Of a stretch of DNA of 64,000 bases, positions 942 to 41,331 are shown piece after piece. The position numbers were made by a program, and so were the translations under genes. Numbering within the stretch: position 1 is the first letter of the stretch; the number at the start of each line of letters is the position of its first letter. Under the pieces are notes generated by a model. It searched no databases and had not been told where the DNA came from. It saw only the letters and a list, made by a program, of their open reading frames with translations. Source of the DNA: a virus; IMG/VR virus record IMGVR_UViG_3300032235_000792. One strand, given 5' to 3'.

Positions 942-1042
942 AGTTATATATGATATCTGTTGTAGTTATACAAGCCATTGTATTTACGAGTTAGTCGAGG
1001 GTAAAAGATAGGGTTTGGCCGCGAGCCCCATAGCCCCACTTC

Positions 1043-1312
1043 GTCCCCAACAGACCAACTGCCTGCCCATCGACAGACCAGCGCGCGGGTCCCAACAGAT
1101 CGGTCCACGCGTACCGAGCAATGTTAGGCCGCAACATTGCTCAGCGCGACAGGCCTGTTACTGGCCAACAGACTGTTTCCCTAGGGGGTTTTGAGGTGCC
1201 TGCTGGCCAACAGAGCTCCCCCGTTGGGCGGCGTAGCAGTGTCACAGACGTCTAGCTGCCAGCAGACCCGCTTAACAGACTGCTGGCGTAGGACCTGTGG
1301 ACTTAACAGACT
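1043..1312 (+). repeat. GC-rich non-coding cluster of AACAGA boxes with inverted repeats
   Basis: Exact AACAGA at 1049, 1094, 1167, 1209, 1274, 1305 plus 4 near matches; perfect 10-bp inverted repeat 1116-1142. Confidence 0.85.
1230..1244. repeat. conserved 15-mer GGCGTAGCAGTGTCA, copy 1
   Basis: Exact copies at 1230, 2296, 3709, 4368, 5130. Confidence 0.95.
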
Positions 1313-1535
1313 ACTCTTCTAGCATCTTGTTGATGGCCAGAGCTGCTCTGACTTCTGCTAGTAGCTCATCGTCATCACTGGCATAGGACTCGTACTCCTC
1401 TAACAGCTCTTGATCTGTCATATTGCGCAGCCCCGGAAAGTTACCGCCATAGAGGATATAGTCTCTGAGTTCAAAACAGCCATACATGTCATCGAACAGT
1501 ACATCCATCAGCTTGTTTCTAGTAACTTCGTCCAT
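1311..1535 (-). CDS. small acidic hypothetical protein
   Basis: 74-aa ORF with AGGAG SD. Confidence 0.8.
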   Translation of the reverse strand: MDEVTRNKLMDVLFDDMYGCFELRDYILYGGNFPGLRNMTDQELLEEYESYASDDDELLAEVRAALAINKMLEE

Positions 1536-1553
1536 ATTAGCTCCTTTATGGTT

Positions 1554-1584
1554 AAAGAAAAGGCCGGAGAGTTACTCCGGCCTT
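1554..1584 (-). terminator. intrinsic terminator after paralogue 1
   Basis: AAGGCCGGAG/CTCCGGCCTT stem followed by U-rich tract on minus strand. Confidence 0.85.
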
Positions 1585-1588
1585 GGAA

Positions 1589-2071
1589 CTAGCCTACTAA
1601 GTGACGTAGGTGCTCTGGGAGAGCGTCAACATTGATCTCTACTTTAGCTTCGGGCTTGATCTCTGCTAGTCTAGCATCAATCGCTTGTTGAACTTGTGTT
1701 TTAGTTTCAGCATCAGTAACCGTCTTGAGTAGAGCTTTAAGAGCTTTGATCTGAGCGTCACCAGAACCAGAGCGAGAACCTGGGTTTTTGGTGGTATAGC
1801 TCTGACCATTGTTGAACTGCGGGTTCTTTCTAATCCAGTTATCTAGTAGGCCAGAGACATACTTCTTAAGCTCGGAGTCAAAGGCATACTTATCACTAGC
1901 TTCGGCTGACATCTGGACTTGGCCAGAGCGGAAGCCAGCGACCAGCTTCTCTTTCATAGTATTCTTTTGCTCTGAAGTTATGATGTCGGACAGCACGACT
2001 TCACCGCCCAGCTCATAGTTAGGCACTACAGACATGACAACTTGAGTAACTGCATCTTTTTGACTAATCAT
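1589..2071 (-). CDS. unknown ~160-aa early protein, paralogue 1 of 3
   Basis: Shares GFRSGQxQMSxEASDKYAFDSEL, NWxRK and KNPGSRxGSGD with 3760..4248 and 5372..5857. Confidence 0.9.
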   Translation of the reverse strand: MISQKDAVTQVVMSVVPNYELGGEVVLSDIITSEQKNTMKEKLVAGFRSGQVQMSAEASDKYAFDSELKKYVSGLLDNWIRKNPQFNNGQSYTTKNPGSRSGSGDAQIKALKALLKTVTDAETKTQVQQAIDARLAEIKPEAKVEINVDALPEHLRHLVG

Positions 2072-2295
2072 ACTAAACCCCTTTAGTAGCTAGCATTATT
2101 GCTAGTGATTAAATATAATATTTGTTAGAGTCCTTGAGTTAATAACTGACAGTTCATCATTTTAGGTGTCTGCACTGTCAAACCGCCCACCGGATACTAA
2201 TATGCCTAGTCCACGCTTGTTAGTCTATGTAAGACTTTTTTACAACCGTATTGGTTGATGTTAATATATAGAATCTGTTAAGGCGGGGGATGGCA

Positions 2296-2310
2296 GGCGT
2301 AGCAGTGTCA
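2296..2310. repeat. conserved 15-mer, copy 2
   Basis: Exact match; abuts hairpin 2311-2328. Confidence 0.95.
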
Positions 2311-2341
2311 CTCGGCCACTAGGCCGAGCGCACGCTGGAGG

Positions 2342-2545
2342 CTAGAACCCTTGGGAGGTGAAATCCAACTCTCCATCTTCTTCATCGTAACTATCTTCTA
2401 CATATACTTCTAGTGTATCTTCGTCACTGAACTCGGCATTCATATCATCTAAGTCTGCCTGTTCGATAGCATCTCGTATCTCTTCCTCAGTATCGATGTC
2501 GTCCTCAAAGTCCTCGTATGAATCGAATAAGTTCATGCTTCTCAT
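2342..2545 (-). CDS. extremely acidic 67-aa protein (possible nucleic-acid mimic)
   Basis: 28 D/E versus 2 R; AGGAG SD. Confidence 0.8.
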   Translation of the reverse strand: MRSMNLFDSYEDFEDDIDTEEEIRDAIEQADLDDMNAEFSDEDTLEVYVEDSYDEEDGELDFTSQGF

Positions 2546-2578
2546 ATAACTCCTATGTTTATTTAGTTTTAAAGAAAT

Positions 2579-2594
2579 GAGCCATCCATGGCTC
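2579..2594 (-). promoter_or_regulatory. leader hairpin with ANGGA loop (CsrA/RsmA-type)
   Basis: GAGCC-ATGGAT-GGCTC on minus strand. Confidence 0.65.
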
Positions 2595-2601
2595 GAATAA
2601 C

Positions 2602-2829
2602 TTAGGCACAGTACTCACGAAGACGCTTGTTGTACTTGATTCTTAAAGCTTCAGCCTCAGCTTTTAGCTCAGCCGCCTTATCATCAGAGCTCGTCTTCAT
2701 AGCGTCAGCGAGTTTATTCCAGTAGGCTGATTTGAACTTAGCCAGGTGCTGTTCATGAAACTCGATCGCTCTAGGATTCTGGATGTCTTCAACTCTAGTA
2801 ACACCATTACATTCTTTAGATTTAGTCAT
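2602..2829 (-). CDS. hypothetical protein
   Basis: 75-aa ORF, GGAGG SD. Confidence 0.8.
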   Translation of the reverse strand: MTKSKECNGVTRVEDIQNPRAIEFHEQHLAKFKSAYWNKLADAMKTSSDDKAAELKAEAEALRIKYNKRLREYCA

Positions 2830-2871
2830 TTAACCCTCCCAAGGTTAGATCATCTACTAGATGATCATTTA

Positions 2872-2896
2872 ATTATGATATATTATAGAATCTGTT
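2872..2896 (-). promoter_or_regulatory. AACAGA-N13-CATAAT promoter
   Basis: Same geometry as the four TATAAT copies; followed by 5' hairpin GATCATCT/AGATGATC. Confidence 0.65.
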
Positions 2897-2904
2897 GGAG
2901 ATAT

Positions 2905-3222
2905 CTACAGACAGGCAGCCAGCCATCTTATTGTATTCTCAATATCTTCTCTATCTTTGATGTAGTCTTTGCCATCATGACAACCACAGCGGCTAGACAC
3001 AACCATATCATCATCTATGTGTATCTGGCATGGTGGACACTCATCATTCTCATACAGCCATTCGCCAGTGAAGTCTTCAAACTCCGCTTGCTCGCTCTCA
3101 CTTAGATGGGAATAGTCTGGTACATTCTTAAGATATGAGTATGCATGATCACAATCCCAGTCATACCCAATCTCTTTGTCACTTTCCATGAATAGCTTTT
3201 TCAAATCACCAAGTGTTTTCAT
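2905..3222 (-). CDS. acidic Cys-containing hypothetical protein
   Basis: Start moved to MKTLGD (GGAGG SD); CPPC and CGC motifs. Confidence 0.8.
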   Translation of the reverse strand: MKTLGDLKKLFMESDKEIGYDWDCDHAYSYLKNVPDYSHLSESEQAEFEDFTGEWLYENDECPPCQIHIDDDMVVSSRCGCHDGKDYIKDREDIENTIRWLAACL

Positions 3223-3238
3223 GTTACCTCCAAAGTTA

Positions 3239-3254
3239 GAGCCATCCATGGCTC
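3239..3254 (-). promoter_or_regulatory. leader hairpin with ANGGA loop
   Basis: Identical to 2579-2594; lies just upstream of the SD. Confidence 0.65.
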
Positions 3255-3262
3255 GAGTTTAG

Positions 3263-3616
3263 TTAGACTTTGCGGAACTGTAAGATACCGTAGTAGAGAC
3301 CGTTGCCAGAACCATCTTGCTCATAGAATAAGCTATAACCATAGTGCTTCATATATATCTCAATGGCTTCAAGTACACCATTAGTTTTACAGTTATCACC
3401 GAGCATCCAACTAACGAACTTGTCGCTCTCCTCCTTTTTGCCCCACAGTTCTTCATCGCTAAAATCATAGTAGACAACGATATCACTTGGGGCGAGATCA
3501 GCTTCATCACCAAGCGACGCCTCATCGTGGGTGATCACACTTAAGTTACCGAGCTTTGGGTAATAGTTGTAGTGGTTTAAGAACTTGCCGAGTGCACTTA
3601 TCATAACTTGATCCAT
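3263..3616 (-). CDS. hypothetical protein
   Basis: 117-aa ORF, GGAGG SD. Confidence 0.85.
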   Translation of the reverse strand: MDQVMISALGKFLNHYNYYPKLGNLSVITHDEASLGDEADLAPSDIVVYYDFSDEELWGKKEESDKFVSWMLGDNCKTNGVLEAIEIYMKHYGYSLFYEQDGSGNGLYYGILQFRKV

Positions 3617-3632
3617 AGTTGCCTCCGAGTTG

Positions 3633-3649
3633 GAGTCAGTCCGTGACTC
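3633..3649 (-). promoter_or_regulatory. leader hairpin with ACGGA loop
   Basis: GAGTC-ACGGACT-GACTC. Confidence 0.65.
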
Positions 3650-3662
3650 GATTAATATTGTA

Positions 3663-3687
3663 ATTATAAAAATATATAAAGTCTGTT
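3663..3687 (-). promoter_or_regulatory. AACAGA-N13-TATAAT promoter
   Basis: Conserved box, 13-nt AT-rich spacer, perfect -10. Confidence 0.75.
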
Positions 3688-3708
3688 AGAGTTTGTGTAG
3701 GTGTGAGC

Positions 3709-3723
3709 GGCGTAGCAGTGTCA
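3709..3723. repeat. conserved 15-mer, copy 3
   Basis: Exact match. Confidence 0.95.
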
Positions 3724-3751
3724 AAATAATAGGTGGGGCTTTCGCCCCACC
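3724..3751 (-). terminator. intrinsic terminator after paralogue 2
   Basis: GGTGGGGC-GAAA-GCCCCACC plus U-rich tail. Confidence 0.85.
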
Positions 3752-3759
3752 GTGGTGGC

Positions 3760-4248
3760 CTAGCCTAGCAGGTGGCGTAGGCTTTCAGGTATCAAGCTCG
3801 CATCGATCTCGATCTTAGGTTTCAACTCTTCAAGACGCTTATCGATCTCGACTTGGATGGTTGCCTTGACCGAAGGGTCGTTGACAGTACTCATCAATGC
3901 TCTCAGAGCTTTCAGCTTCTCGTCACCAGACCCGCTTCGTGATCCAGGATTCTTGGCTTGGTAAGTGTTGCCGCCGTTGAACTCAGGTGCCTTACGCAAC
4001 CAGTTGTTCAGTAGTCCGACACAGTACTTGCGGAGCTCGGAGTCGAAGGCATACTTGTCACTAGCCTCGCTCGACATTTGGATTTGACCCGAGCGGAACC
4101 CAGCGATCAGCATCGCCACAGCGTTCTCCTTGTCACTCACGGTGAACACCTCACTCACAGGTGTCTCGCCATTGAGAGTGTAGTTAACACCACGCTTAGA
4201 AAGAGTAGCTAACACGATAGAGACAGTTGCTTGACGTTGATTAACCAT
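3760..4248 (-). CDS. unknown ~160-aa early protein, paralogue 2 of 3
   Basis: Start moved to MVNQRQ (GGAGG SD; aligns with paralogue N-termini). Confidence 0.9.
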   Translation of the reverse strand: MVNQRQATVSIVLATLSKRGVNYTLNGETPVSEVFTVSDKENAVAMLIAGFRSGQIQMSSEASDKYAFDSELRKYCVGLLNNWLRKAPEFNGGNTYQAKNPGSRSGSGDEKLKALRALMSTVNDPSVKATIQVEIDKRLEELKPKIEIDASLIPESLRHLLG

Positions 4249-4324
4249 ACGAGATCCTCCCAAGGATTAAGCGCGCACGACATGTGAGCACTATTAGTTA
4301 ATTAATATAATTAAATAAGTTATA

Positions 4325-4382
4325 TATTTAATTATAAATAATATTAAAGTCTGTTAAATTATATAGCGGCGTAGCAGTGTCA
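4325..4382. repeat. 58-bp exact duplicate of 5087-5144 (promoter plus 15-mer copy 4)
   Basis: Direct comparison. Confidence 0.95.
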
Positions 4383-4402
4383 GTAGGCCTTGCGGCCTAC
4401 TG
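4381..4402 (-). terminator. hairpin (GCAA loop) after 4413 gene
   Basis: CAGTAGGCC-GCAA-GGCCTACTG; no U-tract, runs into the 15-mer. Confidence 0.6.
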
Positions 4403-4412
4403 CACCAGATAA

Positions 4413-4688
4413 CTAGACGACCAGTCCTTGGTCTTGGAGTTGTTGGTCAAGTGTCTTACCATCGTAGTTGAGTAAGTCACTACCATCGTTGAGATCAGTG
4501 AACATATCCTGCTTGACCTCGCTATAGGTCTGCACACACTCGGGATCCTCGTGGCACATGAACCACAGTTGACCGTTGATGCTGTAGACTTCGAAGTCGT
4601 AGATAGCGTGGTTACCGATGTGGACACAGCCGACATGGTTAGATTCAAAGTCTTCGTGGTTAAAGTTAGATGGATCGAAAGTTGTCAT
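4413..4688 (-). CDS. acidic hypothetical protein
   Basis: Start moved to MTTFDP (GGAGG SD). Confidence 0.8.
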   Translation of the reverse strand: MTTFDPSNFNHEDFESNHVGCVHIGNHAIYDFEVYSINGQLWFMCHEDPECVQTYSEVKQDMFTDLNDGSDLLNYDGKTLDQQLQDQGLVV

Positions 4689-4706
4689 GATTACCTCCAA
4701 GATAGA

Positions 4707-4722
4707 GAGTCGTCCATGACTC
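4707..4722 (-). promoter_or_regulatory. leader hairpin with ANGGA loop
   Basis: GAGTC-ATGGAC-GACTC. Confidence 0.65.
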
Positions 4723-4757
4723 AGTTAATTTATATTGATTGTTAAGATTTGTTAGGG

Positions 4758-5027
4758 CTACGCTTCGGTATCCCAGCGGAAGAGTAGCTCGTTGTACTTA
4801 GCTTCGCTGATCACCACCCAACTCCATGTGTTAAGGTAGCGGACCGCATGATTCTTCTTGCCAGTCATGCGCAGCGACTTGCCGTACATTTGGGACTTGG
4901 CTCGCTCTTTGATGACACCAGACTCTTTATGGCCGCTCAGCGAGTGCGACTCATACTCGTAAGAGTAAGGGTTGTTGTCAGTGGCGTCGATAGCACGGAC
5001 GAGCTTAATGAGTGACAATGATTTCAT
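4758..5027 (-). CDS. basic hypothetical protein
   Basis: 89-aa ORF, GGAGG SD. Confidence 0.8.
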   Translation of the reverse strand: MKSLSLIKLVRAIDATDNNPYSYEYESHSLSGHKESGVIKERAKSQMYGKSLRMTGKKNHAVRYLNTWSWVVISEAKYNELLFRWDTEA

Positions 5028-5042
5028 AGTACCTCCAAGTTG

Positions 5043-5059
5043 GAGTCAGTCCGTGACTC
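5043..5059 (-). promoter_or_regulatory. leader hairpin with ACGGA loop
   Basis: Within a 31-bp exact duplicate of 3628-3658. Confidence 0.65.
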
Positions 5060-5086
5060 GATTAATATAATAAATAATTTTAATTT

Positions 5087-5144
5087 TATTTAATTATAAA
5101 TAATATTAAAGTCTGTTAAATTATATAGCGGCGTAGCAGTGTCA
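5087..5144. repeat. 58-bp duplicate (promoter plus 15-mer copy 5)
   Basis: Identical to 4325-4382. Confidence 0.95.
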
Positions 5145-5184
5145 ATAGGTAAGCGGGCCATCATGGCCCGCATAACCTCGGAGA

Positions 5185-5277
5185 TCACTCAGCATCTTCG
5201 CTAAGCAATTCATAATCATCGTAATCAAGATAGCTTAAGTTATAATCATCATCTTCATTCATATTTATATCGTTCAT
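5185..5277 (-). CDS. 30-aa acidic micro-protein
   Basis: MNDINMNEDDDYNLSYLDYDDYELLSEDAE; GGGGA SD; followed by hairpin 5153-5171. Confidence 0.65.
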   Translation of the reverse strand: MNDINMNEDDDYNLSYLDYDDYELLSEDAE

Positions 5278-5342
5278 AATTTCCCCCATTAGTTATATCC
5301 GCTATTAAGTACCAAGATAGACATCTTAATACTTAATAGAAG

Positions 5343-5362
5343 GGAGGGACTTTCGTCCCTCC
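5343..5362 (-). terminator. terminator hairpin after paralogue 3
   Basis: GGAGGGAC-GAAA-GTCCCTCC. Confidence 0.8.
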
Positions 5363-5371
5363 AGTTAACCT

Positions 5372-5857
5372 CTAGAGTAGGTGGCGTAAGCTCTCAGGGA
5401 TCAGATCAGCATTGATCTCGATCTTAGGCTTAAGCTCTTCGATTCGCTTATCGATCTCAGATTGGATCGTAGCCTTGGTAGTAGGATCACTTACCTTAGA
5501 CATCAGAGCTCGTAGGGCTTTCAGCTTCTCATCACCAGATCCCGTTCTAGATCCAGGGTTCTTAGCTGTATAAGCATTACCACCGTTGAACTCAGGAGCC
5601 TTGCGGATCCAGTTGTTAACCAGACCAACCACATATTTCTTAAGTTCAGAGTCGAAGGCATACTTATCAGAAGCCTCAGAGGACATTTGTATCTGTCCAG
5701 ATCGGAAGCCCGCGACCAGCTTGTTGACAGCTTGTTCCTTGTCAGTTACCGTTAGGACATCTGCGATACATTGCTCACCGTTTAGGTTGTAGTCGATACC
5801 GCGCTCAGAGAGAACAGATAAGATAACAGATACAGTTGCTTGACGTTGAGATACCAT
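5372..5857 (-). CDS. unknown ~160-aa early protein, paralogue 3 of 3
   Basis: Clear paralogue; AAGGAG SD. Confidence 0.9.
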   Translation of the reverse strand: MVSQRQATVSVILSVLSERGIDYNLNGEQCIADVLTVTDKEQAVNKLVAGFRSGQIQMSSEASDKYAFDSELKKYVVGLVNNWIRKAPEFNGGNAYTAKNPGSRTGSGDEKLKALRALMSKVSDPTTKATIQSEIDKRIEELKPKIEINADLIPESLRHLL

Positions 5858-5875
5858 TGAGAACTCCTTGGTTAT

Positions 5876-5891
5876 GAGTCATCCGTAACTC
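5876..5891 (-). promoter_or_regulatory. leader hairpin with ANGGA loop
   Basis: GAGTT-ACGGAT-GACTC, 8 nt downstream of TATAAT. Confidence 0.6.
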
Positions 5892-5899
5892 GGTGGTTA

Positions 5900-5924
5900 A
5901 TTATAAAAATTTATAAAGTCTGTT
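5900..5924 (-). promoter_or_regulatory. AACAGA-N13-TATAAT promoter
   Basis: Same geometry; a second variant lies at 5954-5978. Confidence 0.75.
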
Positions 5925-6102
5925 AAAAAATAGGGCCGGGTAACTTTATTATTTATATAAGTATTGTTAAAATCTGTTGGATCTGGTACCCCACGAACTC
6001 TGGGAGGACACTTCGCCATAAAATAGGGCCCACTGGCTTCTACCCCATAATAGGCAAACTCACCAGGTACCACTACTTCAATTTTTATATATTATTTTTT
6101 AT

Positions 6103-9612: not shown

Positions 9613-11127
9613 ATGCCGCAAGCAGCAAGTAAAAAACAATTTAGATTTATGCAGGCAGTCCTGCATGGATATAAAGGACATTCTAGAGGGGTTCCGCCTA
9701 AAAGTGTAGCGGCTAAGTACGTTTCTAATAAGAGTGCACCAGAAAGTAAGAACAATGATAAAGGTGGCACGTGGTCAGAGGATCACCATAAGTTGCATGG
9801 TGAAGGCAAAAAGAAGAAGAAAGAAAAGAAGAAGCTCAAAAAAGCATTTGAGCAGTACTATTCCGGCCGTGGTGTTGGCTTAGTAGTTACTGACGATGAC
9901 GGTCAAATTCTTGTAGGTAAAGGTCATGACGGAACCTGGCAAACTCCAGGCGGACACGTTGAGGCCGGAGAAGATTTCTCAGATGCAGCTAATCGTGAAT
10001 TAAAAGAAGAAGCTGGAATTAGCGCAGGACCGATGCGAGAGATAGGTCATGCTAAGCTAGACGGTAATGACGCTAAGATTTTTCATGTTGAGTCTTTTTC
10101 TGGAAAAGTTAAGGATTCTGAGGAACTTAAAGAACTACATTTCGCTCCACTCCATGATGTCTTAGATTTGGATCTAAGAAGCTGTTCTAGAGCTGGACTG
10201 GAGATGTACGTACAGTCTCATCTTAAAAAATCTACAAAATTAAGTGATTTAGTTATATTAGAAAAATTAAATAAGAATATATTAAGAGGCGCAGATCAGC
10301 GCACTGCTGTGTTAGACGTGAGTCACGGAGAAGCCCTCAGATTAGTTGGCAATGGCTGCTTTAGAATGTTGCAAAGCGCCACTAAAGATATGGGTGACGA
10401 GGATTTTAGAGAGATCAAGATCGACACATATACAATAAGCATACGAAAGCATCTTAACGATGTATATTCTGGGCGCATAAATGACGGACACAAAGTAATT
10501 CATCAATTCACAAACAAGTCGCTTCCTCAACTATGTGCAGATGTTATGTCTGTATTTGAATGGTACTCAGATGAAGACGACAAAGTATTTGATATTCTTG
10601 ACGAAGAAAAATTACCTGACGACGCTATTCACGGCGGACTACATCAGCTTTCTGAAAACTATAAAAAACATAATCTAGCTAATATATATACAGAGATGGA
10701 GAATATTAGAAAAGAGATTAGGAACGGCGTTGCCGTGGATATTCAGCAAGTAGAAAGCAAGATCATGTCTTTGTTTGACAAACTTGAGAATTCTGTTTTA
10801 ACAATAATCGATAAACATAATCAACTAAATCAAGATGCCGGTAAAGAAATCGAGATCATAGAAAGCAAACTATTAGAGCTTCAAGAAAAGATAGAAGAAC
10901 TTAATCGCAAGCCGTCAAGTGTTGATGTAGTGCAATCTAAGAAGATAGATCCTAAAAAGGTTTATGAAAGTCAATATATGTACTTACCTAAACCAAAAAT
11001 TCAATTAAGCTCAGACGGCAATATCTCCATATCTTTTGATAAAGAGTGGACAGACCTAGAAAAATCAAATTTCCTCTGTGACATGAAGGCGAGGATCTTG
11101 AAGAAGGGTCGAGATGATAGACGCTAG
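9613..11127 (+). CDS. multi-domain protein with Nudix hydrolase domain, probably virion-associated
   Basis: Nudix box GGHVEAGEDFSDAANRELKEEAGI; lies among neck genes. Confidence 0.8.
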   Translation: MPQAASKKQFRFMQAVLHGYKGHSRGVPPKSVAAKYVSNKSAPESKNNDKGGTWSEDHHKLHGEGKKKKKEKKKLKKAFEQYYSGRGVGLVVTDDDGQILVGKGHDGTWQTPGGHVEAGEDFSDAANRELKEEAGISAGPMREIGHAKLDGNDAKIFHVESFSGKVKDSEELKELHFAPLHDVLDLDLRSCSRAGLEMYVQSHLKKSTKLSDLVILEKLNKNILRGADQRTAVLDVSHGEALRLVGNGCFRMLQSATKDMGDEDFREIKIDTYTISIRKHLNDVYSGRINDGHKVIHQFTNKSLPQLCADVMSVFEWYSDEDDKVFDILDEEKLPDDAIHGGLHQLSENYKKHNLANIYTEMENIRKEIRNGVAVDIQQVESKIMSLFDKLENSVLTIIDKHNQLNQDAGKEIEIIESKLLELQEKIEELNRKPSSVDVVQSKKIDPKKVYESQYMYLPKPKIQLSSDGNISISFDKEWTDLEKSNFLCDMKARILKKGRDDRR

Positions 11128-11851
11128 ATTCGAGATAGACAAGCTAAAACAGGTCCTCAGACAAAAGAATATGCCTGAATCTATAATTCAAGAGATCTGT
11201 AACGATGCAGCTAGAGATATTAGTTCAGCTACAACAGACTTATTGGCTGATGCTATGATAGCAGCAGTTAATGCAGGTGGCGATGTTAGCTCATCACAAT
11301 TTGTTAGTGAAGTATTGTCAGTGAGATCTGGTCACACCTTTAATGTAGACACATCTTCTGGTAAGCAGAACTTCTCTGAACCGCCGTTTCCAATGTTGCC
11401 AAAACTTCTCAAGAATGCAAAAATCTCTAAAGACGGTGAAGCATACAGAGTAATTCCTATATCTAATAAATCAGGGCCATCAAGTGCTGTTACTACTGAA
11501 GCGGCTATTCGCAACATAAATCAAGCAAGGCAAGCAGCCAAAGATGAACGTGACGCCAAAGAGAAAGGTACGAAAACAGCGTCCACTCCGGATCCTATGG
11601 CAGGCATGGAAATTTTAGCGGCAATACAGGGTGCTGGTCGTCCTTCGCCGCAAAAAAGAGAAAGTAAAATAAAAGAAGGAAGTATAACCTTTAGAACTGC
11701 CTCTAGTAAGCAAGATGCTTCGGTTAGTTGGGTTATGCCAGCAAAGAACGCAGATTTAACAGAGAGACTTAGAGACATAAATAATAACTTACAAGACTCT
11801 ATTGATAGGGTTATTTTGGATATCGTCAATAGATATTCTGGGATGTATTAA
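11114..11851 (+). CDS. putative neck/tail-completion protein
   Basis: Synteny; TFRTASSK..SWVMP motif reminiscent of large-myovirus neck proteins. Confidence 0.5.
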   Translation: MIDARFEIDKLKQVLRQKNMPESIIQEICNDAARDISSATTDLLADAMIAAVNAGGDVSSSQFVSEVLSVRSGHTFNVDTSSGKQNFSEPPFPMLPKLLKNAKISKDGEAYRVIPISNKSGPSSAVTTEAAIRNINQARQAAKDERDAKEKGTKTASTPDPMAGMEILAAIQGAGRPSPQKRESKIKEGSITFRTASSKQDASVSWVMPAKNADLTERLRDINNNLQDSIDRVILDIVNRYSGMY

Positions 11852-12555
11852 TGGCTTTTGTTATGCCTGAGGTTGCTTTACAGCGACTAGTACAAATTGG
11901 ACTGTCCAACCTACGAACTAATCGTGCGGCGTTTAATTGTATCTTTGCGCAGTTCCTAACTCCAGAAATGAGCGGAGCTTATGGGCAGCAGCATATAGAT
12001 AAGATCTATAATTGGTTTATTGGCTCTAAACTACCGGTACTTCAAGCATGGTCTTTTGACCCAACTAGAGTGCCTGCATATAGCATACACTTGGCAGATG
12101 AAAGTGAAGATGAGAGCAAGGCTGCAATAAGTGATTACTTTGGAATGGGTGAGAACTCAGAGATATTAACTGGACCATCTACTGTATCTCTAGACATTGG
12201 TATTCATGCCGACAAGTCTAAGGATCATGTCCTGTGGATGTACTACATACTTGCTTACATTTTTTACAAAGAAAAGATGACTGGGCATGGATTAGGTCTG
12301 CAATTATATACATTTAGAGCTTCTGATTATAACAAAGAAAGCAAGTACATGGCAGACAATGTGTGGTCTAGATGGATTCGATTTAGATGTACAGTTCAAA
12401 ACTATCTGGATGGCGAAGAATACATGGATCAACCTGTTATAAATATTGATATCGATGCTAGTGCGATAGATAATTATGATGAAACAACTGATATATATAG
12501 TGAAACTCTAGGTGGACCAGATTCACCAGATATAAGGAGAAGCAATGGAACCTAG
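11851..12555 (+). CDS. putative tail terminator/completion protein
   Basis: Position upstream of sheath; size. Confidence 0.5.
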   Translation: MAFVMPEVALQRLVQIGLSNLRTNRAAFNCIFAQFLTPEMSGAYGQQHIDKIYNWFIGSKLPVLQAWSFDPTRVPAYSIHLADESEDESKAAISDYFGMGENSEILTGPSTVSLDIGIHADKSKDHVLWMYYILAYIFYKEKMTGHGLGLQLYTFRASDYNKESKYMADNVWSRWIRFRCTVQNYLDGEEYMDQPVINIDIDASAIDNYDETTDIYSETLGGPDSPDIRRSNGT

Positions 12556-12793
12556 TGAATTAGAGCTTAAACAAAAAATTAAAGAGATGGAGCAGCAAAA
12601 AAGAAAGGTAGAATCTCCGGCTAATGAGCTAGTTACCTTTGACACTTGGTTTCATAAGAGAAAAGACTCCATACCTAGTCGTCACATGAAGGAAATACTT
12701 TTTGCTGACTTTTCTGCTAGAGGACTGAAGGGGGCTGCAACAATGGAACAGTTCGATAAGGCTCTGGCCCTTTATGGGGTAAAACTTAAGTAA
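12545..12793 (+). CDS. small hypothetical protein preceding sheath
   Basis: 82-aa ORF, AGGAG SD. Confidence 0.7.
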   Translation: MEPSELELKQKIKEMEQQKRKVESPANELVTFDTWFHKRKDSIPSRHMKEILFADFSARGLKGAATMEQFDKALALYGVKLK

Positions 12794-12846
12794 ATATACA
12801 TGTTATAATATAATTAATGCAATGAAACTGATTAGGAGAGACTAAC

Positions 12847-15030
12847 ATGGCAATTAATGTATCATTCAACGGTTCTACGATCTATAAGCCAGGTGCTTAC
12901 TCTAGAACTACAATAGATCTTGGCGGTGGATTTCCACTTGGTCCTGCTGGTATAGTAGCCATTTTTGGTGAATCAACTAAAGGAAAGCCCGGTAGCGAAG
13001 AAATTATCGCAAATAATGTATTTAATGCTAATCAGATAGCACAAGTTCGTCAAAAGTACGGATCTGGTCCTATTGTTGATGCCATGAACTTCTTGTTTGC
13101 TCCAGCTTCTGATGGAGCTATTCCAAGCGGTGCTCAAGCTGTGTACATCTATAAAACAAATGATTCAACTAGAGCGTCAATTGCTTTAGCTAATTCATTC
13201 GGTACTGTTAGATCTCTAGAGCATGGTGTTGGTGGTAACACTATTACATTCTCTGCTTCTGAAGTTTCTGAGGTTGCACCGTCATTGTCATCTTCTTCTG
13301 CATTTGATGAAGCAGCAATCGCTGCTGGTTCATTCGATATTTTCGTAAACGGTGTTAAATCTACTGTTGCTGTTGCTGGCGGTTATGCTGATAAAGCAGC
13401 TCTAGTTGCGGATGCCGCTTCGTGGTCGGTAGATGATGTATCTTTTGTAGTTGGTGGCGCAGATGGTGCTTGTACTTTACAAGTTTCAATTGATGCTGAC
13501 GCACAAGCTGCTAGAAAGGGTTGGGGAAAATCAATTCAATTAGCAGATGGTTCTGGCGCTCCTCTTGCTGCAATGAACATGTCTGAAGATATGGAAGTTT
13601 CTTCTGTTGAATCAGCTATGACAGTTACAATTAAACAAACAAGAGATCTTCTTCAAGAACAAGACACTATCGGTGGTAACGTTGTTCTAGAAGTTGGTTA
13701 CAGCGGTGCTCAAGCTGCAGCAAGCATAGAAATCACAGATACGCAAGTCATATTGACTGCTGGTGCATCTATCTCTATCGACAAAAGCTCATACCCAACA
13801 CTTAGTCAATTAGTTAACGCTATCAACCTTAATCCAGGATGGAAAGCCGCTCTAACTAGTTCACTATATAATTCAATTTCGCCTAAGATGCTTGATCAAG
13901 TTGACGTAGGCGCTAAATCACCTGACGCAGAAACTAGCAAGCCAGCAAGAATCAAGAAAGATTCTGGTGAAGCTGCTCAGCTATTTGCAGAATCTGCTAT
14001 CGTTGATATTGCAGATCAATCTTCTGCTGGATTAATGGATGCAATGTCTGAAGCTGCTTTGACTGGTGGAACACTTGGATCAACAACATCTGCAGACATC
14101 GTAGATGCACTAGCTGCTCTTGAAGGTGTTCGAGTTAATGCAGTAGTTCCTCTATTCTCTAGAGATGCTATCGTTGATTCTGACACTGCTACGGGCGATG
14201 TTGCTGATAATCTTACTGATGTCGCTTCATCATATACAATATTAGGTATTCATCAAGCTGTTAAAACTCACTGCAGCTTAATGAGCACAACTAAAAATAG
14301 AAGCGAAAGACAGGGTTACCTTTCTTATAAGAACGACTTCGTCTCTTGTAGAGAAAGAGCGTCACTTCTTGCTGATGCAAGAATGCAGCTTGCAATTCAA
14401 GATATTCGCAATATCGATTCTCAAGGAAACATCAAGTGGTTTCAACCATGGGCTCAAGCTTGTATGCTTGCTGGTGCTCGTTCTGGTTCTCCAGTTGGTA
14501 CTCCACTAACATTCAAATTCTTCAACGCAGTTGGAATCAGACAAACTGAACAGTCTATGTCTACGTCAGAAGAAGATATCATTGCTGATTTTAATCCTAA
14601 TACAGATGCTGATATTGCTATTCAAAGCGGTATTTCGTTCTTCGAAGCTCCTCAGTTGGGTGGAATAAGATGTGTCCTAGATAATACAACTTATCAAAAA
14701 GATGGTAACTGGGTTTACAACAGAGGTAACGTACTTTACGCTGCTGACATTTTAGCGTTTGATTTCAGAAATCAAATGGAGAATCTATATGTTGGTAAGA
14801 AAAATACAGTTAAAGCGAGTGAAATTAAATCAACAGCTTCTACTATACTAGATACATATCTAGCGCAAGGTATTACTGTCTCTTCTAATGGCGCACCAAA
14901 TGGCTATAAAGATCTTATTGTAAGTGTTAACGGTAATGTTATCAATATTAGCGTTACTGTAGTTCTTGTTGAAGGTATTGACTTTGTATTAAGTGATATC
15001 ACAATTACAAGAGCACAATCACAAGCTTAA
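12847..15030 (+). CDS. contractile tail sheath protein
   Basis: N-terminal FNG..IYKPGAYS; AIFGES..GKP; sheath-type C-terminus; 727 aa; TGnTATAAT promoter at 12801. Confidence 0.9.
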   Translation: MAINVSFNGSTIYKPGAYSRTTIDLGGGFPLGPAGIVAIFGESTKGKPGSEEIIANNVFNANQIAQVRQKYGSGPIVDAMNFLFAPASDGAIPSGAQAVYIYKTNDSTRASIALANSFGTVRSLEHGVGGNTITFSASEVSEVAPSLSSSSAFDEAAIAAGSFDIFVNGVKSTVAVAGGYADKAALVADAASWSVDDVSFVVGGADGACTLQVSIDADAQAARKGWGKSIQLADGSGAPLAAMNMSEDMEVSSVESAMTVTIKQTRDLLQEQDTIGGNVVLEVGYSGAQAAASIEITDTQVILTAGASISIDKSSYPTLSQLVNAINLNPGWKAALTSSLYNSISPKMLDQVDVGAKSPDAETSKPARIKKDSGEAAQLFAESAIVDIADQSSAGLMDAMSEAALTGGTLGSTTSADIVDALAALEGVRVNAVVPLFSRDAIVDSDTATGDVADNLTDVASSYTILGIHQAVKTHCSLMSTTKNRSERQGYLSYKNDFVSCRERASLLADARMQLAIQDIRNIDSQGNIKWFQPWAQACMLAGARSGSPVGTPLTFKFFNAVGIRQTEQSMSTSEEDIIADFNPNTDADIAIQSGISFFEAPQLGGIRCVLDNTTYQKDGNWVYNRGNVLYAADILAFDFRNQMENLYVGKKNTVKASEIKSTASTILDTYLAQGITVSSNGAPNGYKDLIVSVNGNVINISVTVVLVEGIDFVLSDITITRAQSQA

Positions 15031-15040
15031 TAGTATAATA

Positions 15041-15066
15041 AAAAGGTCGACGTACGTCGACCTTTT
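15041..15066. promoter_or_regulatory. perfect 26-bp palindrome (terminator, 5' hairpin or operator)
   Basis: AAAAGGTCGACGTACGTCGACCTTTT between TATAAT (15034) and the SD of the next gene. Confidence 0.7.
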
Positions 15067-15082
15067 AACACTAAGAGGATCA

Positions 15083-16201
15083 ATGAAAAAGCTATTAGAA
15101 TTAGAAAAAAGACTTAGAGAAGCTAAGCAAGAGCTTGAGAAAGCAAAATCAGATAAAGGCTTATCTAACGATGAAAAGATAGCAGCAAGACAAGAAAGAA
15201 ATGTCCGCACTCCAAGTAAGAATAAGAAGACTATGGTTGGTTCTCCAAAAGAAACTAAAATGCCAGAGCAAACTTTCTTATCTGGCATGAAAGAGATAAT
15301 TGAAGAAGAGAAGAAAAAACCTCAAGAAAAATTAGCAGCTTCTCTAGAAGGTAGAGCTTCAGAGAATGAAGAATTATCTAAGACTTTAGATGAGACTATC
15401 GATAGACTGTTAGAGAAAACATCAGGTCTTAATAAGATCATGTCTTCTGGAACAACTCAGGCTGGAAGCGTTAATTCGACTGGCGGTTCATCTCTTGCAT
15501 CTCAGATCGGATTTGGTAAAGGCGAAGATAAGAAATTAGTCGGTGGTCAAAAAGAACTAGATGCAGATAAAGATGGCGATATCGAAGCTGATGATCTAGC
15601 TGCCTTAAGAGAAAAAAAGAAGAAGATGGATAAGGCCGAACACGAAGACGAGAAAGAAGACAAGGAGCTTATAGCTGAGGCACTAGATCGTCACAATGAA
15701 AAAAAGCATGGTGAAAAGAAAAGTGTTGATTCTGCTAAAAAAGAAATATTCAAAACTTTAGCTAATGGTCAATGGTCTATGCATAAAGCAGACGACATTG
15801 AGACTATGTTTCCAGCTTCTAAAAACTTTCCTAAAGAAAAGCCTGCTAAAGAAGCTAAAGAGCCAAAAGAAGATCAGCCAAAGATAGAGACAGAGGAAAT
15901 GTTCCCTGAATCTAAGAGATTCCCTAAAGAAGGCGAAAAGAAACTAAGTAAAGGTCTTGGCGCTAAGCTAGAAGAAAGCTCATGGAGAAGAGGAAAAGAC
16001 AAGTCTATGGCAACTAGACAGCCAGCAAAAGTTACAGATGTAAAATCTGGTGAAACTAAGATGGTTTCTCCAGGTGAGCAAGTCACTCAAGCAAAGGTTG
16101 CTAGAGCTTCAAGTAAGTCTGAGGCAAAAATGAAAGGTGAAGCTGCTGCAGCAGCTAGGCGTGCCAAAATGAAATCAGAGGCCGCAGCCGAAAAAAAATA
16201 A
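15083..16201 (+). CDS. K/E-rich low-complexity protein with EF-hand-like loop; possible internal head protein
   Basis: Start moved to MKKLLE (GAGG SD); DADKDGDIEADD loop. Confidence 0.75.
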   Translation: MKKLLELEKRLREAKQELEKAKSDKGLSNDEKIAARQERNVRTPSKNKKTMVGSPKETKMPEQTFLSGMKEIIEEEKKKPQEKLAASLEGRASENEELSKTLDETIDRLLEKTSGLNKIMSSGTTQAGSVNSTGGSSLASQIGFGKGEDKKLVGGQKELDADKDGDIEADDLAALREKKKKMDKAEHEDEKEDKELIAEALDRHNEKKHGEKKSVDSAKKEIFKTLANGQWSMHKADDIETMFPASKNFPKEKPAKEAKEPKEDQPKIETEEMFPESKRFPKEGEKKLSKGLGAKLEESSWRRGKDKSMATRQPAKVTDVKSGETKMVSPGEQVTQAKVARASSKSEAKMKGEAAAAARRAKMKSEAAAEKK

Positions 16202-16209
16202 GAAACCTT

Positions 16210-16239
16210 AAAACCCTCTTTTCAGAGGGTTTTTTGTTT
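16210..16239 (+). terminator. intrinsic terminator
   Basis: AAAACCCTCT/AGAGGGTTTT plus T tract. Confidence 0.85.
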
Positions 16240-16325
16240 AGCCCCATAAATGATACAATATATTTGGTTACATAAGTAACCGTTAAAAAATTCTAGGTAA
16301 GTGGAACCGAACCACAAGGAGATTT

Positions 16326-16853
16326 ATGTCAGGATTAAAACCGTCTTTTGTAACAGGTGCAAATGCTAAGATTAAGCTTGCAGGAAAGACAATGGCTTAC
16401 GCACAAGATGTTAGCTATGCAGTTACAGTTTCTACAATCCCTGTTGAGACCATGGGTCGATATGAGGTTGTTAATCATGAGCCAGTTGCTTATTTCGTAG
16501 AAGGAACTCTATCAGTTGTTAGATATACTAAGAACAGTTCTGCTATGGCAGGATCATCAGATGACGGCAACTCTACTAATAAATGGGGCGGTGCTACTGA
16601 TTCCATTGGCAAACCTGACCTAATGTTTAATCCAGGTCGACTAACTGCTTCTTCTACATTTGATGTAGATATATTTCAAAAAGGTACAGCAGAAGACATA
16701 AGTGTTGTAAAATTAAGAGACTGCAGATTCACTAGTAAAGGTGGTCAGCTAGATAAGCGTGGAATCTTAGTTGAAAGATTCGCATTTAACGCAATATACC
16801 TAGATGACGAAGGTACTTCTGTAAGCGGATCTGGAGATGAGGATCTAGCTTAA
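16326..16853 (+). CDS. tail tube protein (paralogue 1)
   Basis: Follows sheath; TGANAKIK..G..MAYA; ~175-aa beta-rich. Confidence 0.8.
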   Translation: MSGLKPSFVTGANAKIKLAGKTMAYAQDVSYAVTVSTIPVETMGRYEVVNHEPVAYFVEGTLSVVRYTKNSSAMAGSSDDGNSTNKWGGATDSIGKPDLMFNPGRLTASSTFDVDIFQKGTAEDISVVKLRDCRFTSKGGQLDKRGILVERFAFNAIYLDDEGTSVSGSGDEDLA

Positions 16854-16870
16854 TAAGCGAAAGGGCGTAG

Positions 16871-17422
16871 ATGTCCGGCAAAAAACCATTGTTTTTAACT
16901 GGTGCAAATGCCAAGATCAAAGTTAACGGCGTGACCTTGGCATATGCAGTAGATTTAAGTTATTCAATAAGAGTGGAGCATGCTACCCCGACTGTGTTGG
17001 GAATGTATGAGGCCAGTTCAGTTGAGCCTATAAGCTATTCTGTAACTGGTACATTCACTGTTGTTAGGTATGTGGCTGAAATGCATCAAAAAACTGGCGG
17101 AAACGCTGGTACCTCTAAAAAGGGAAACGGTGCTGGAACTTGGGGCGGAGATGCCGGTCTACTAAAGACGACTGGTAGAGCCTATGAAAGCTTTGTTCCT
17201 TCTAAGCTAAGCACATCTTCTTCGTTCTCAATAGAGATATTTCAGAAATACAACGGTGGCTCTATGCCTGTAGCCAAAATAAGAGACGCACGCATAACTG
17301 CCAGCGATTTTCAAATTGACAAGAAGAGCACTGCAATGCAGAGATTCTCTTTTACTGCCCTTTATGCAGACGAGGACAGCTTTATCGCTGACTTCTCTGG
17401 TGATGGCCAACAATTCTCATAG
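16871..17422 (+). CDS. tail tube-like protein (paralogue 2)
   Basis: Clear paralogue of 16326 (TGANAKIK, GTxxVVRY, KxRDxR). Confidence 0.8.
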   Translation: MSGKKPLFLTGANAKIKVNGVTLAYAVDLSYSIRVEHATPTVLGMYEASSVEPISYSVTGTFTVVRYVAEMHQKTGGNAGTSKKGNGAGTWGGDAGLLKTTGRAYESFVPSKLSTSSSFSIEIFQKYNGGSMPVAKIRDARITASDFQIDKKSTAMQRFSFTALYADEDSFIADFSGDGQQFS

Positions 17423-17429
17423 GTGAAGT

Positions 17430-17951
17430 ATGTCTGGAGAAAATAAGTTAGAGTCAGGTAGCGGTCTTAATTTAGCAGACAATCTAGCCTCTAATCTTGG
17501 TGTGTTTTCTATAAAACCTATAGCTAAGTACTTAAGTGGTGCAAGATGTACTCTTAAGGTTGGCGGTAGGATCATAGGGTTTGCTTTCTCTGTATCTTGG
17601 ACTGTAGAGACCAAAGTGACAGAAATACTAACTATAGACAACTATGAACCTCACGAGTTAGCACCATCTCGTATAGATGTTCACGGAAGTATATCTGGAT
17701 TTAGGATTCCGGGATCTGGTCCTGGGCAGCTATATATGCAATCAGATGTATTAAACTTCTTACATCAGCCATACATTGAAATAGAGGTTAGAGATTCTCA
17801 GACTGATGAGATTATCTTCATGACTAAGAGAGCAATGATAACAAATAGACAAGAAGCCATAAAAACTAATAGCTTAGCTGAATTAACTTTACAGTTTAAG
17901 GCAATAGGCTTTAGAGACGAGTTGACGCCAGAACCACCTAAAACATTGTAA
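17430..17951 (+). CDS. tail tube-like protein (paralogue 3, divergent)
   Basis: SGARCTLKVGGRIIGFA aligns with the N-termini of the other two. Confidence 0.7.
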   Translation: MSGENKLESGSGLNLADNLASNLGVFSIKPIAKYLSGARCTLKVGGRIIGFAFSVSWTVETKVTEILTIDNYEPHELAPSRIDVHGSISGFRIPGSGPGQLYMQSDVLNFLHQPYIEIEVRDSQTDEIIFMTKRAMITNRQEAIKTNSLAELTLQFKAIGFRDELTPEPPKTL

Positions 17952-18009
17952 GTATATAAATTATATTTTGATACTCTTGGTATAATGTCCTTAAATATAA
18001 GGAGCTACA

Positions 18010-18384
18010 ATGGATCTTCCTAAAAATGAAAAATCTTTCGCACTAGATCATATTGGACAAACAACTGGCAAGAAATATCAAGGTACATTTACAGTTAAAT
18101 GTGCTTTAAGCATGGCAGATAAAAGAAAGCTAGAAATTGAAAAAACTAGTCTTTCTGCTGACTTCAATAACCCAACTGCAGAACTCGCTGCAATCTCATC
18201 AATTATTGCAAATCTAAGAGTTAAAGTTATAGATGGCCCAGACTGGTTTAAACAATCTATTAGAAGTCTAGACATCCTAGACGAGGATGTATATCTAGAG
18301 ATTTTCGATAAATGCTTTGAAAAAAGCGAAGAATGGCTAAATGAAGTTAAAGCCAAATCTTTAGGTGAAGAAGTGGGAAACTAG
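18010..18384 (+). CDS. tail assembly chaperone (G)
   Basis: Between tube and tape measure genes; ends in slippery G GGA AAC. Confidence 0.85.
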   Translation: MDLPKNEKSFALDHIGQTTGKKYQGTFTVKCALSMADKRKLEIEKTSLSADFNNPTAELAAISSIIANLRVKVIDGPDWFKQSIRSLDILDEDVYLEIFDKCFEKSEEWLNEVKAKSLGEEVGN

Positions 18385-18405
18385 AGGCCGGTGAACTAGA
18401 CCGGC
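18375..18405 (+). other. programmed -1 frameshift site with stimulatory hairpin
   Basis: GGGAAAC 18375-18381; GCCGGT-N7-ACCGGC 18387-18405; -1 frame open to 18830. Confidence 0.9.
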
Positions 18406-18830
18406 TATCGATCCTAGATGCCATAAAAGACATAACAGACAAAGCAGCAAAAACGCCAATAGACGATGAACGATCTACTGAATTGTATTTACGTAGTTGG
18501 TGGTCTAAATTTTACAATAAACCCCTCAAAGATCCTATCCTAGATCAATACACTGTCTATGAGCTAATGTATGAATTTTACGATAAAATATCACGTAAAG
18601 TTGCAGAAGAAGAAAGAGCTGGGCAAGAAGCTGATAAAATAGAAGATAAGAAAATAGATGACACACTTAAGTGGATCGAAGAGGAAGAGCGCAAGGAGCA
18701 AGAACTGAGCGCTAAGAAGTCAAGTGATGCACCTAAAGAGTCTTCTGTAGACGACGAAAAATGGATGCTGGAGCAGCTTAAGAAGCAGCACGGTGATGAC
18801 TTTGGGGAAGACATAGATCTTAAATTTTAG
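18381..18830 (+). CDS. tail assembly chaperone frameshift extension (GT)
   Basis: -1 frame is continuous from the slippery site into the ORF-track 18483..18830. Confidence 0.85.
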   Translation, partial: LEAGELDRLSILDAIKDITDKAAKTPIDDERSTELYLRSWWSKFYNKPLKDPILDQYTVYELMYEFYDKISRKVAEEERAGQEADKIEDKKIDDTLKWIEEEERKEQELSAKKSSDAPKESSVDDEKWMLEQLKKQHGDDFGEDIDLKF

Positions 18831-18837
18831 GTAAATT

Positions 18838-23624: not shown

Positions 23625-23626
23625 TT

Positions 23627-25743: not shown

Positions 25744-25805
25744 TCATAACTCATTTTGCTATATAATATATAAATATCATTGATATTTAAAGAATATAGG
25801 CACAT

Positions 25806-28426: not shown

Positions 28427-28427
28427 T

Positions 28428-34955: not shown

Positions 34956-34962
34956 GGATTAT

Positions 34963-37092: not shown

Positions 37093-37140
37093 CACGTATT
37101 CTGGTATAATTAAGTATATTTAGAGGCTAAAGGAAGTTGC

Positions 37141-40881: not shown

Positions 40882-40890
40882 GAGGTTTTT

Positions 40891-41331
40891 ATGACTTACA
40901 GACCATATTCTCAAATATCTAGCTCAGTAGACTTATCTACGATAAAGACGCCATTATTAAATAGTAGCGGTCTTACTATATTGGAACACATGCCTGTTAA
41001 GGTCAATGTAAACGGAGACGTCGCATTTGTTGATGTATCTAATGAAAATGATATATTTAGCTTAGTCGGCATATCAAATACTATGATAACATCTGGTACA
41101 TATGGTGACATAGTTACTCAAGGTCGTGTCGTAGATATTAGCGGCTTTGATTTTGGTGAATATGTTTATATATCTAAAACTGGCGGACTAACAAATATTC
41201 TGCCAGATGAAGGTAGCTATGGGTTCGTATCTGGAGACTGGGTCGTGAAGGTTGGAGTAATAGCTAAAAATCCAAGTGACCCTATGCTAAAAGATCTTAT
41301 CGTCAATATGCAGATAGTTGGACAATTGTAA
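40891..41331 (+). CDS. fibre/decoration-type beta protein
   Basis: GEYVYISKTGGLT motif common in phage structural proteins. Confidence 0.55.
   Translation: MTYRPYSQISSSVDLSTIKTPLLNSSGLTILEHMPVKVNVNGDVAFVDVSNENDIFSLVGISNTMITSGTYGDIVTQGRVVDISGFDFGEYVYISKTGGLTNILPDEGSYGFVSGDWVVKVGVIAKNPSDPMLKDLIVNMQIVGQL

Follow-up and report, generated by a model that had tools for sequence, protein, structure and literature searches.

The locus described here raises the question why a phage should keep several letter-perfect copies of one short sequence in the spaces between its small genes, and what reads them. It lies in a 64,000-nucleotide (nt) stretch of DNA, the IMG/VR virus record IMGVR_UViG_3300032235_000792, which is referred to as a whole as the window. 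The sequence in question, a 15-mer that we term box M, reads TGACACTGCTACGCC on its sense strand, which is the minus strand here, and GGCGTAGCAGTGTCA on the plus strand. In the whole window, GGCGTAGCAGTGTCA is found in five exact copies on the plus strand (Table 1), compared to 0.13 matches expected in the shuffled window even at up to two mismatches. This count and the strands of the genes, which at positions 1-7600 are all encoded on the minus strand, confirmed the statement of the first-pass annotation, made from the letters of the window, that the 15-mer occurs exactly five times and is always intergenic. Along the minus strand, a unit consists of the stop codon of an open reading frame (ORF), a GC-rich hairpin that is in many cases capped by a GNRA loop, box M, a promoter-like module P, a 5'-leader hairpin, a strong Shine-Dalgarno (SD) site and an ATG. 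The placement proposed for four of the copies, 0-8 nt after a hairpin and 12-21 nt before an AACAGA box, was borne out on the minus strand as well, with spacings to the box of 12, 12, 21 and 16 nt, and the next start codon preceded by an SD site follows M at a distance of 42-550 nt. The array has a GC content of 43-45% versus 35-40% for the remaining window. Its description as delimited by the box stood in part: only the ends of operons carry M, and several cassettes and promoters of the array do without it.

Box M is a real control element that is shared by a clade of phages and was previously undescribed. The search of related phages for the 15-mer, which the first-pass annotation had proposed as a check, revealed a clade-wide signature that goes far beyond a local repeat. 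In IMG/VR, exact matches were found in 117 stretches, many of them with three to five copies. The gene of a 160-amino-acid (aa) protein family is co-present in at least 63 of the M loci that were fetched and thereby identifies these loci as true relatives; lone matches lacking this family context are probably due to chance. The set of near-complete relatives comprised nine IMG/VR genomes of freshwater myoviruses, at least 90% complete and 166-177 kb in length. All nine carry four to seven copies of M on one strand only and none on the other. Their sheath proteins are 50-74% identical to that of the window phage, and their GC content spans from 35% in one genome to 49% in another. That 13-15 nt are letter-perfect despite half-identical structural proteins and a 14-point spread in GC content argues for a reader under very strong constraint. 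In 1.45 Mb of family DNA, 154 exact copies, 32 copies with one mismatch and nine copies with two mismatches were counted in sense orientation, as opposed to zero copies with up to one mismatch in antisense orientation; matches with three mismatches occurred at chance level on both strands. Variation is confined to positions 15, 7, 1 and 9, and the invariant core is GACACYGCTACGC. The flanks of M are unrelated between phages and show weak preferences for C at -1, A at -2 and purines at +1/+2. Per genome, the sites are clustered in 10-20 kb, with the cluster always located in the initial 2-15 kb of the block whose genes diverge from the structural ones, and their orientation follows the transcription block; some copies lie 8-13 kb away, outside the cassette arrays. 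The outgroup, Myxococcus phage Mx1, has no M, and no paper containing the 15-mer in the sequence of either strand was found. A location of M inside a conserved cellular gene or RNA was rejected, as the scan of genome contigs gave scattered single hits in unrelated taxa.

The neighbourhood of M follows a grammar, which was assessed on 150 distinct copies from the family DNA. A hairpin of at least 6 bp is present within 60 nt upstream of 67% of the copies, compared to 19-21% in the controls, and its stem either runs 1-4 nt into M or stops 5-10 nt ahead of it, in the latter case often with an intervening T run. On the downstream side, a promoter-like box is present within 80 nt of 97 of the 150 copies (76 of them at 5-25 nt), compared to 5 of 150 in the upstream control. 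The distance between M and this box ranges from 4 to about 30 nt and is unimodal without a 10-nt periodicity, and the spacers differ in length and sequence even among related copies. Since the spacers vary while M stays fixed, M is a separate block, as had been proposed in the first-pass annotation for the 15-mer; spacing and promoter box vary, the 15-mer is constant. The box drifts between phages (AACAGAC, ACCGATTCGA, CCCGATCC and CCGAAC types) and is followed after 1-4 nt by TATAWA, giving a family consensus for P of C(C/A)GAY, 1-4 nt and TATAWA, without a -35 element. In relatives, the box is located just 25-30 nt from the ATG and was therefore read as an extended -10-type element. Of the six P modules of the window, four are preceded by M, and because the same is true for only five of the approximately 20 boxes of the relative G001, M is an optional add-on to a subset of promoters. 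In two relatives, G006 and G008, canonical terminators consisting of a hairpin and T5-8 lie ahead of M. In these genomes, M is thus located after the point of RNA release and before the next promoter, i.e. in a non-transcribed spacer, which favours a function in DNA. The lack of a U tract did not discriminate between M-adjacent hairpins (7/29) and other hairpins (25/177).

With regard to the factors that may use these promoters, the window phage encodes a sigma70-family protein that lacks region 4 (Table 1). Judging from its domains, this protein likely reads the -10-type P boxes, since a sigma factor without region 4 fits promoters having only a -10 element. Upstream of the late and structural genes (regions within 9613..49914, plus strand) lies a box of the gTATAATAT type that consists of a -10 and has no -35 element; it differs from the AACAGAY box and represents a second class of phage promoter. 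A Cys-rich protein of 119-125 aa, the C-terminus of which matches sigma region 4.2, is encoded separately in relatives. This protein is present in all four clade genomes examined and absent from Mx1, and conservation is far higher in its N-terminal Cys/His half than in its helix-turn-helix (HTH). As reader of M it is not favoured, because its recognition helix differs between phages. M contains TGACA, and we rejected it as a sigma70 -35 box, as TAnnnT is found at spacers of 16-18 in only 2-5% of the cases, no higher than at other offsets. A sigma70 promoter scan of positions 1-9000 gave 29 sites versus 21.3 +/- 4.4 in shuffles, which is near expectation. M as a sigma54 promoter was also rejected, since, read by eye, it has GA in place of the GG and a spacing that falls short by one nt.

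In the best explanation, to which we assign a probability somewhat short of even, M, with its core GACACYGCTACGC, is recognised in cis as double-stranded DNA by a conserved phage protein with sequence specificity, which would control or insulate the members of a small regulon. What was observed is that M is conserved, confined to one strand, placed according to a grammar and distributed throughout the clade; from this we infer a protein as its reader, an effect on transcription and the direction of that effect. Where the early/middle gene block begins, M would mark four to seven boundaries between operons and would sit in the spacer between the terminator hairpin of the preceding operon and the next -10-only promoter. 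Based on the box-to-TATA geometry and the spacing, it would be centred at approximately -32 to -55 relative to this promoter, i.e. at the position of a -35 box or of a class II activator site. The reader would probably bind as a monomer or via two domains, since M is asymmetric. Once bound, it could set the activity of the promoter by recruitment or repression, and/or form a polar block against read-through and in this way insulate each strongly expressed unit. M is frozen while the promoter boxes drift, likely because several sites, and possibly several paralogous readers, would need to change together. A number of points weigh against this explanation. No M-binding protein has been identified, and the 160-aa family, which travels with M, is without a significant structural match. 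The protein resembling sigma region 4.2 is clade-specific like M, yet its recognition helix is variable. The missing helical periodicity in the spacing between M and P argues against a rigid contact between protein and polymerase, and the hairpin stems often reach 1-8 nt into M, which could mean a role in RNA or as a single strand. Finally, the RNA run X20 yielded contigs only, in which transcript ends are unreadable and uncovered parts say nothing.

A further reading, which we regard as unlikely, is that M and the 160-aa family together constitute a new regulatory system, in which a nucleic-acid binder of new fold, with three to four divergent paralogs, reads the frozen 13-bp site. The family is clade-specific, predicted to be all-helical and represented by three to four paralogs per genome. 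It co-occurs with M in the clade, and both are missing from Mx1. Of 101 genes of the family, 27 have M 32-60 nt past the stop codon and 32 have it upstream at a distance of up to 450 nt, and two of the six metatranscriptome contigs on the window cover genes of this family. Across the paralogs, Y..G...N...K....N (Y75, G78, N82, K86 and N91) and NPGSR.G..D (a loop of residues 100-109) are invariant, and it may be through this motif that the site is contacted. The paralogs would then switch or insulate highly expressed early operons, and M would stay unchanged across 35-49% GC because several sites and several paralogs must co-change. Neither Pfam, PHROGs nor Atlas contained a named family for the protein. 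Its AlphaFold2 (AF2) model reached a pLDDT of 91 for the whole chain and of 85 for residues 1-112, and Foldseek found no match to this model at E <= 0.001. Two results speak against a role of the family as reader: in a VIA-wide comparison of the model, the best Z scores were 4.9-5.2 and the winged-helix/HTH rows reached 4.3-4.7, within noise, and the family is not strongly basic overall.

The array also bears traces of exchange between its units. The first-pass annotation had described regulatory parts as mixed between units, and this was confirmed by three pairs of repeats: 4325-4387 versus 5087-5149 (63 nt, 98% identical; a duplicated module of M and P with unrelated flanks), 3622-3666 versus 5032-5076 (45 nt, 91% identical) and 2579-2596 versus 3239-3256 (18 nt, 100% identical). 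The adjoining ORFs, which it had called unrelated, include three that are paralogs of the 160-aa family and 57-78% identical. The gene content between the M copies is completely different among relatives, and the cassette ORFs located there are found in just 0-5 of about 115 family loci, compared to 63 for the 160-aa family. The leader hairpins (Table 1) are located just before the SD site, and loops containing GGA were noted for those at 5876-5891, 5043-5059, 4707-4722, 3633-3649, 3239-3254 and 2579-2594. Natural variants were identified by comparing contigs from three lake DNA runs with positions 1-9000 of the window. A deletion variant joining 4240 to 4707, in which 25 replaced letters recreate a leader resembling that of paralog 1, was present in two lake runs, and another one joining 3231 to 4707 in one (the two variants came from runs X2/X3); both joints lie in the spacer between leader hairpin and SD, and the nearest M is approximately 60-120 nt away. 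Run X3 carries another hairpin in place of the one that separates the stop codon (3761) from M (3723), with M retained; this break abuts M. The rarity of the ORFs in the family loci and the cassette deletions in lake metagenomes support the earlier view of a shuffling-prone accessory array. The expectation that breakpoints map to the 15-mer was not met by the same data, in which one of three joints touches it. The array resembles the promoter-early stem-loop (PeSL) cassettes discussed below, the parts at which crossover occurs are promoter and leader, and M is at most a passive anchor. Cassette shuffling is separate from the role of M and is carried mainly by the promoter and leader-hairpin parts.

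The fifth copy of M, termed orphan, differs from the others in that no other promoter is present for approximately 250 nt. The 200 nt past it have a GC content of 61% and contain five repeats of CTGT(T/G)GG type. One such M without a box, opening a noncoding region of about 250 nt with high GC content, is present per genome in at least five genomes (the window phage, G001, G004, G006 and G011), and like iteron regions were also found in L007, L036, L098, L105, L312, L315 and L318. Across genomes, these regions have approximately 60% GC, four to eight repeats of the CTGT(T/G)GG type and short blocks that are conserved between phages; an 18-nt block of the window region is conserved in L036 and, with mismatches, in L105. 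The iteron region is a candidate for an origin, a packaging site or a structured RNA.

These data were also weighed with regard to other functions of M. It could itself be a promoter or a promoter specificity element that is read by a dedicated phage transcription factor, in which case the linked operons would possess two promoters in tandem that belong to different temporal classes, and a noncoding transcript driven by the orphan would run through the iteron region. Such a role would suit an asymmetric, contiguous and gene-oriented sequence that lies upstream of genes and after terminators, is followed by an enrichment of purines at +1/+2 and, in the orphan, has no other promoter nearby; these phages encode several sigma-like factors, and the late promoters of T4 are a precedent for invariance throughout a clade. 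However, M has 60% GC, is followed by a GC-rich spacer and has no AT-rich -10 or TATA element, whereas both promoter classes known from these phages are TATA-type. There is no -10 at sigma70 spacing either, and the 13-nt core exceeds the footprint of sigma domain 2. Among the ORFs of G001 of at least 450 aa outside the structural block, we found Pol III alpha, NrdD, GroEL and SbcC but no phage RNA polymerase, and a search with PF00940 gave no match, the control genomes being silent too. As a weak additional point, the RNA contig on paralog 3 stops at 2094, just downstream of the P box at 2126 and short of M at 2296, contig ends being unreliable. We therefore rate a promoter function of M as unlikely. 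An action in RNA is quite unlikely in our view. Here, M and the preceding hairpin would jointly serve read-through transcripts as a module for 3'-end formation, processing or termination, i.e. a hairpin with a conserved single-stranded tail that is read by an RNA-binding protein or a nuclease. The strict sense orientation of M and its tight coupling to the upstream hairpin, the stem of which often takes in the first 1-8 nt, are in line with this, and so are the many M-adjacent hairpins without a U tract, which would therefore not terminate alone. On the other hand, transcripts should stop ahead of M where the T tract is full, as in G006 and G008, one third of the M copies are without a hairpin, and the link of M to the downstream promoter is as tight as that to the hairpin. 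Moreover, an invariant target of 13 nt would be unusual for a nuclease, and no complementary RNA is encoded in the three genomes that were searched for an antisense guide to M with G:U pairs allowed.

The position of M at the 3' end of cassettes, beside a variable hairpin, recalls attC sites, which are located at the 3' end of integron cassettes next to a variable hairpin, and together with the complete difference in gene content between M copies among relatives it raises the idea of a recombination site of attC or PeSL type, or at least of a microhomology anchor for shuffling. Two block edges do abut M, namely the upstream end of the duplicated 63-nt module and the 3723/3761 replacement, but two of the three joints in natural variants lie well away from it. 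Furthermore, there are only four to seven copies of M despite many more cassettes, the orphan and the copies 8-13 kb away are outside the cassette arrays, and no recombinase is known to be linked, although no search aimed at integrases was made. This function is accordingly judged very improbable. The same low probability is assigned to a DNA signal unrelated to transcription, such as a strand-specific nick, a polar fork barrier or a part of an origin or packaging site. Strand-specific nick sites are known from T5 and phiKMV-type phages, and the few copies of M are asymmetric and strand-specific, with one of them directly abutting an iteron-rich GC region that resembles an origin or pac-type element. 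But the orientation of M tracks the transcription block, and its constant placement between terminator and promoter is not something that signals for nicking, forks or packaging would need; M copies flank the iteron region on both sides in the same orientation and so do not form a fork trap.

Table 1 Features of the box M array and its surroundings in the 64,000-nt window.
Feature	Coordinates	Strand	Remarks
M copy 1	5130..5144	-	exact; 8 nt past hairpin 5153-5171; promoter box 12 nt on
M copy 2	4368..4382	-	exact; stem of hairpin 4381-4402 takes in first 2 nt of M; M and P as in copy 1
M copy 3	3709..3723	-	exact; 8 nt past terminator-like hairpin 3732-3751 with T-rich tail
M copy 4	2296..2310	-	exact; hairpin 2309-2330 overlaps first 2 nt of M; promoter box 16 nt downstream
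M copy 5 (orphan)	1230..1244	-	exact; no nearby promoter box; opens GC-rich iteron region
GC-rich noncoding iteron region after orphan M	1000..1229	-	sequence reading and comparison with relatives
28-nt promoter-like module P (AACAGAY, 2 nt, TATAWA-like), six copies	5898-5925, 5091-5118, 4329-4356, 3661-3688, 2870-2897, 2253-2280	-	repeat family and regex scan
Weaker P copies	near 5978, 4770, 2126, 961	-	regex scan
5'-leader hairpins just before SD	5876-5891, 5043-5059, 4707-4722, 3633-3649, 3239-3254, 2848-2866, 2579-2594	-	
160-aa paralog 1	5372..5857	-	RNA contig covers 5372-5711
160-aa paralog 2	3760..4263	-	M on both sides
160-aa paralog 3	1589..2071	-	RNA contig covers 1617-2094
Sigma70-family gene, 235 aa	7683..8390	+	Pfam PF04542, PF04539, PF00140; regions 1.2, 2 and 3, no region 4

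The first 13 nt of the box also occur exactly at 14181-14195 in the sheath gene and at 31163-31177 in the baseplate-wedge gene, both on the plus strand. Both of these late-gene copies are in sense orientation and in the same reading frame (D-T-A-T), and 8 nt past the copy in the baseplate-wedge gene there is a stretch similar to a P box, ACAGAC...TACGATAAT. A function of the sheath-gene copy is doubtful because the copy is not kept at the homologous position in relatives. Scans of the array region with Rfam and for tRNAs revealed nothing relevant. Transcription units without an ORF, approximately 150-370 nt long from promoter box to hairpin, were observed in the window (2130-2280, minus strand), in G001 (122513-122690) and in L083 (12733-13130). 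They sit between two boxes or ahead of a paralog, and the one of the window has no Rfam match; these short units are possibly small noncoding RNAs.

The phage of the window is a divergent myovirus with sheath, baseplate and fibre genes on the plus strand from 7.7 kb onwards. A comparison of positions 1000-6100 with the INPHARED phages in near and distant modes gave no nucleotide match, and the closest isolate according to the sheath protein is Myxococcus phage Mx1 with 33% identity. Near-identical DNA was found in lake and freshwater metagenomes of 14 studies. The 146,658-bp relative G011 is also deposited as L255 (LNEN01000305.1), a contig of a metagenome-assembled genome of Cytophagales, which is a weak hint, from binning only, at the host. 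Strong SD sites are used by these phages. The window further contains a glyA-like serine hydroxymethyltransferase gene (59079-60338, minus strand), which is 55-62% identical to copies of Aeromonas T4-like and other phages and adjoins genes for a primase and a DnaB-like helicase.

Several known systems share features with this locus. The PeSLs are composite terminator/promoter cassettes of T4-like phages (PMC2839356, PMC4122927). As in these, the small ORFan genes of the window and its relatives are separated by a recurring arrangement of a stem-loop, a promoter immediately behind it, an SD site and a start codon, and the region is hyperplastic, with the indels of close relatives joining within repeated regulatory parts. 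In contrast to the PeSLs, the promoters of which consist of host sigma70 -35/-10 elements that differ between phage subgroups, the array has a phage-type box with only a -10, and a clade-invariant extra 15-mer, absent from PeSLs, between stem-loop and promoter. In addition, the joints are located here in a second hairpin, that of the 5' leader, and the closest isolate of the phage, by sheath, is Mx1. The closest proven mechanism, by analogy, would be an operator or stoperator of L5 type. The repressors of this type (L5 gp71, cluster A mycobacteriophages) recognise asymmetric 13-mer sites whose orientation follows transcription, and the proven reader of such a site is a monomer with two DNA-binding domains (PMC9283540). 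M shares with the L5 stoperators the asymmetric 13 nt, the presence in multiple copies in short intergenic spaces and the orientation locked to transcription. It differs from them in number and distribution: L5 has more than 20 genome-wide sites that serve temperate immunity, with a consensus diversifying between subclusters, whereas the phages described here have four to seven sites in one region, always between terminator and promoter, that are invariant throughout a deep clade. In these phages, for which no systematic search for repressors or integrases was made, neither a repressor nor genes for lysogeny were identified.

Another parallel is provided by the start-associated sequences (SAS) of cluster K mycobacteriophages, conserved asymmetric 13-bp intergenic motifs that are present in approximately 10-20 copies, oriented with transcription like M and, to our knowledge, without an established function. 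SAS are located a few bp upstream of start codons, whereas M lies 42-550 nt upstream and before the promoter box. The host-takeover module of SPO1 and the pre-early region of T5 are dense collections of very small genes, each with a strong promoter and terminator, and are thus comparable to the small-gene array at the start of the early region described here. We know of no invariant extra box in either of them, and the INPHARED nucleotide comparison showed no sequence relationship of SPO1 or T5 to the array. PeSL-style modular exchange is seen here in a phage whose closest isolate is Mx1, with the exchange points mapped in natural populations. M may serve as a metagenomic marker of the clade and its accessory-gene array, and offers an entry point into the transcription control of widespread, uncultured large freshwater phages that carry a truncated sigma factor. 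Asymmetric intergenic repeats and terminator/promoter cassettes were each known before; what is new is that an uncultured freshwater clade combines the two, with an invariance of unusual depth.

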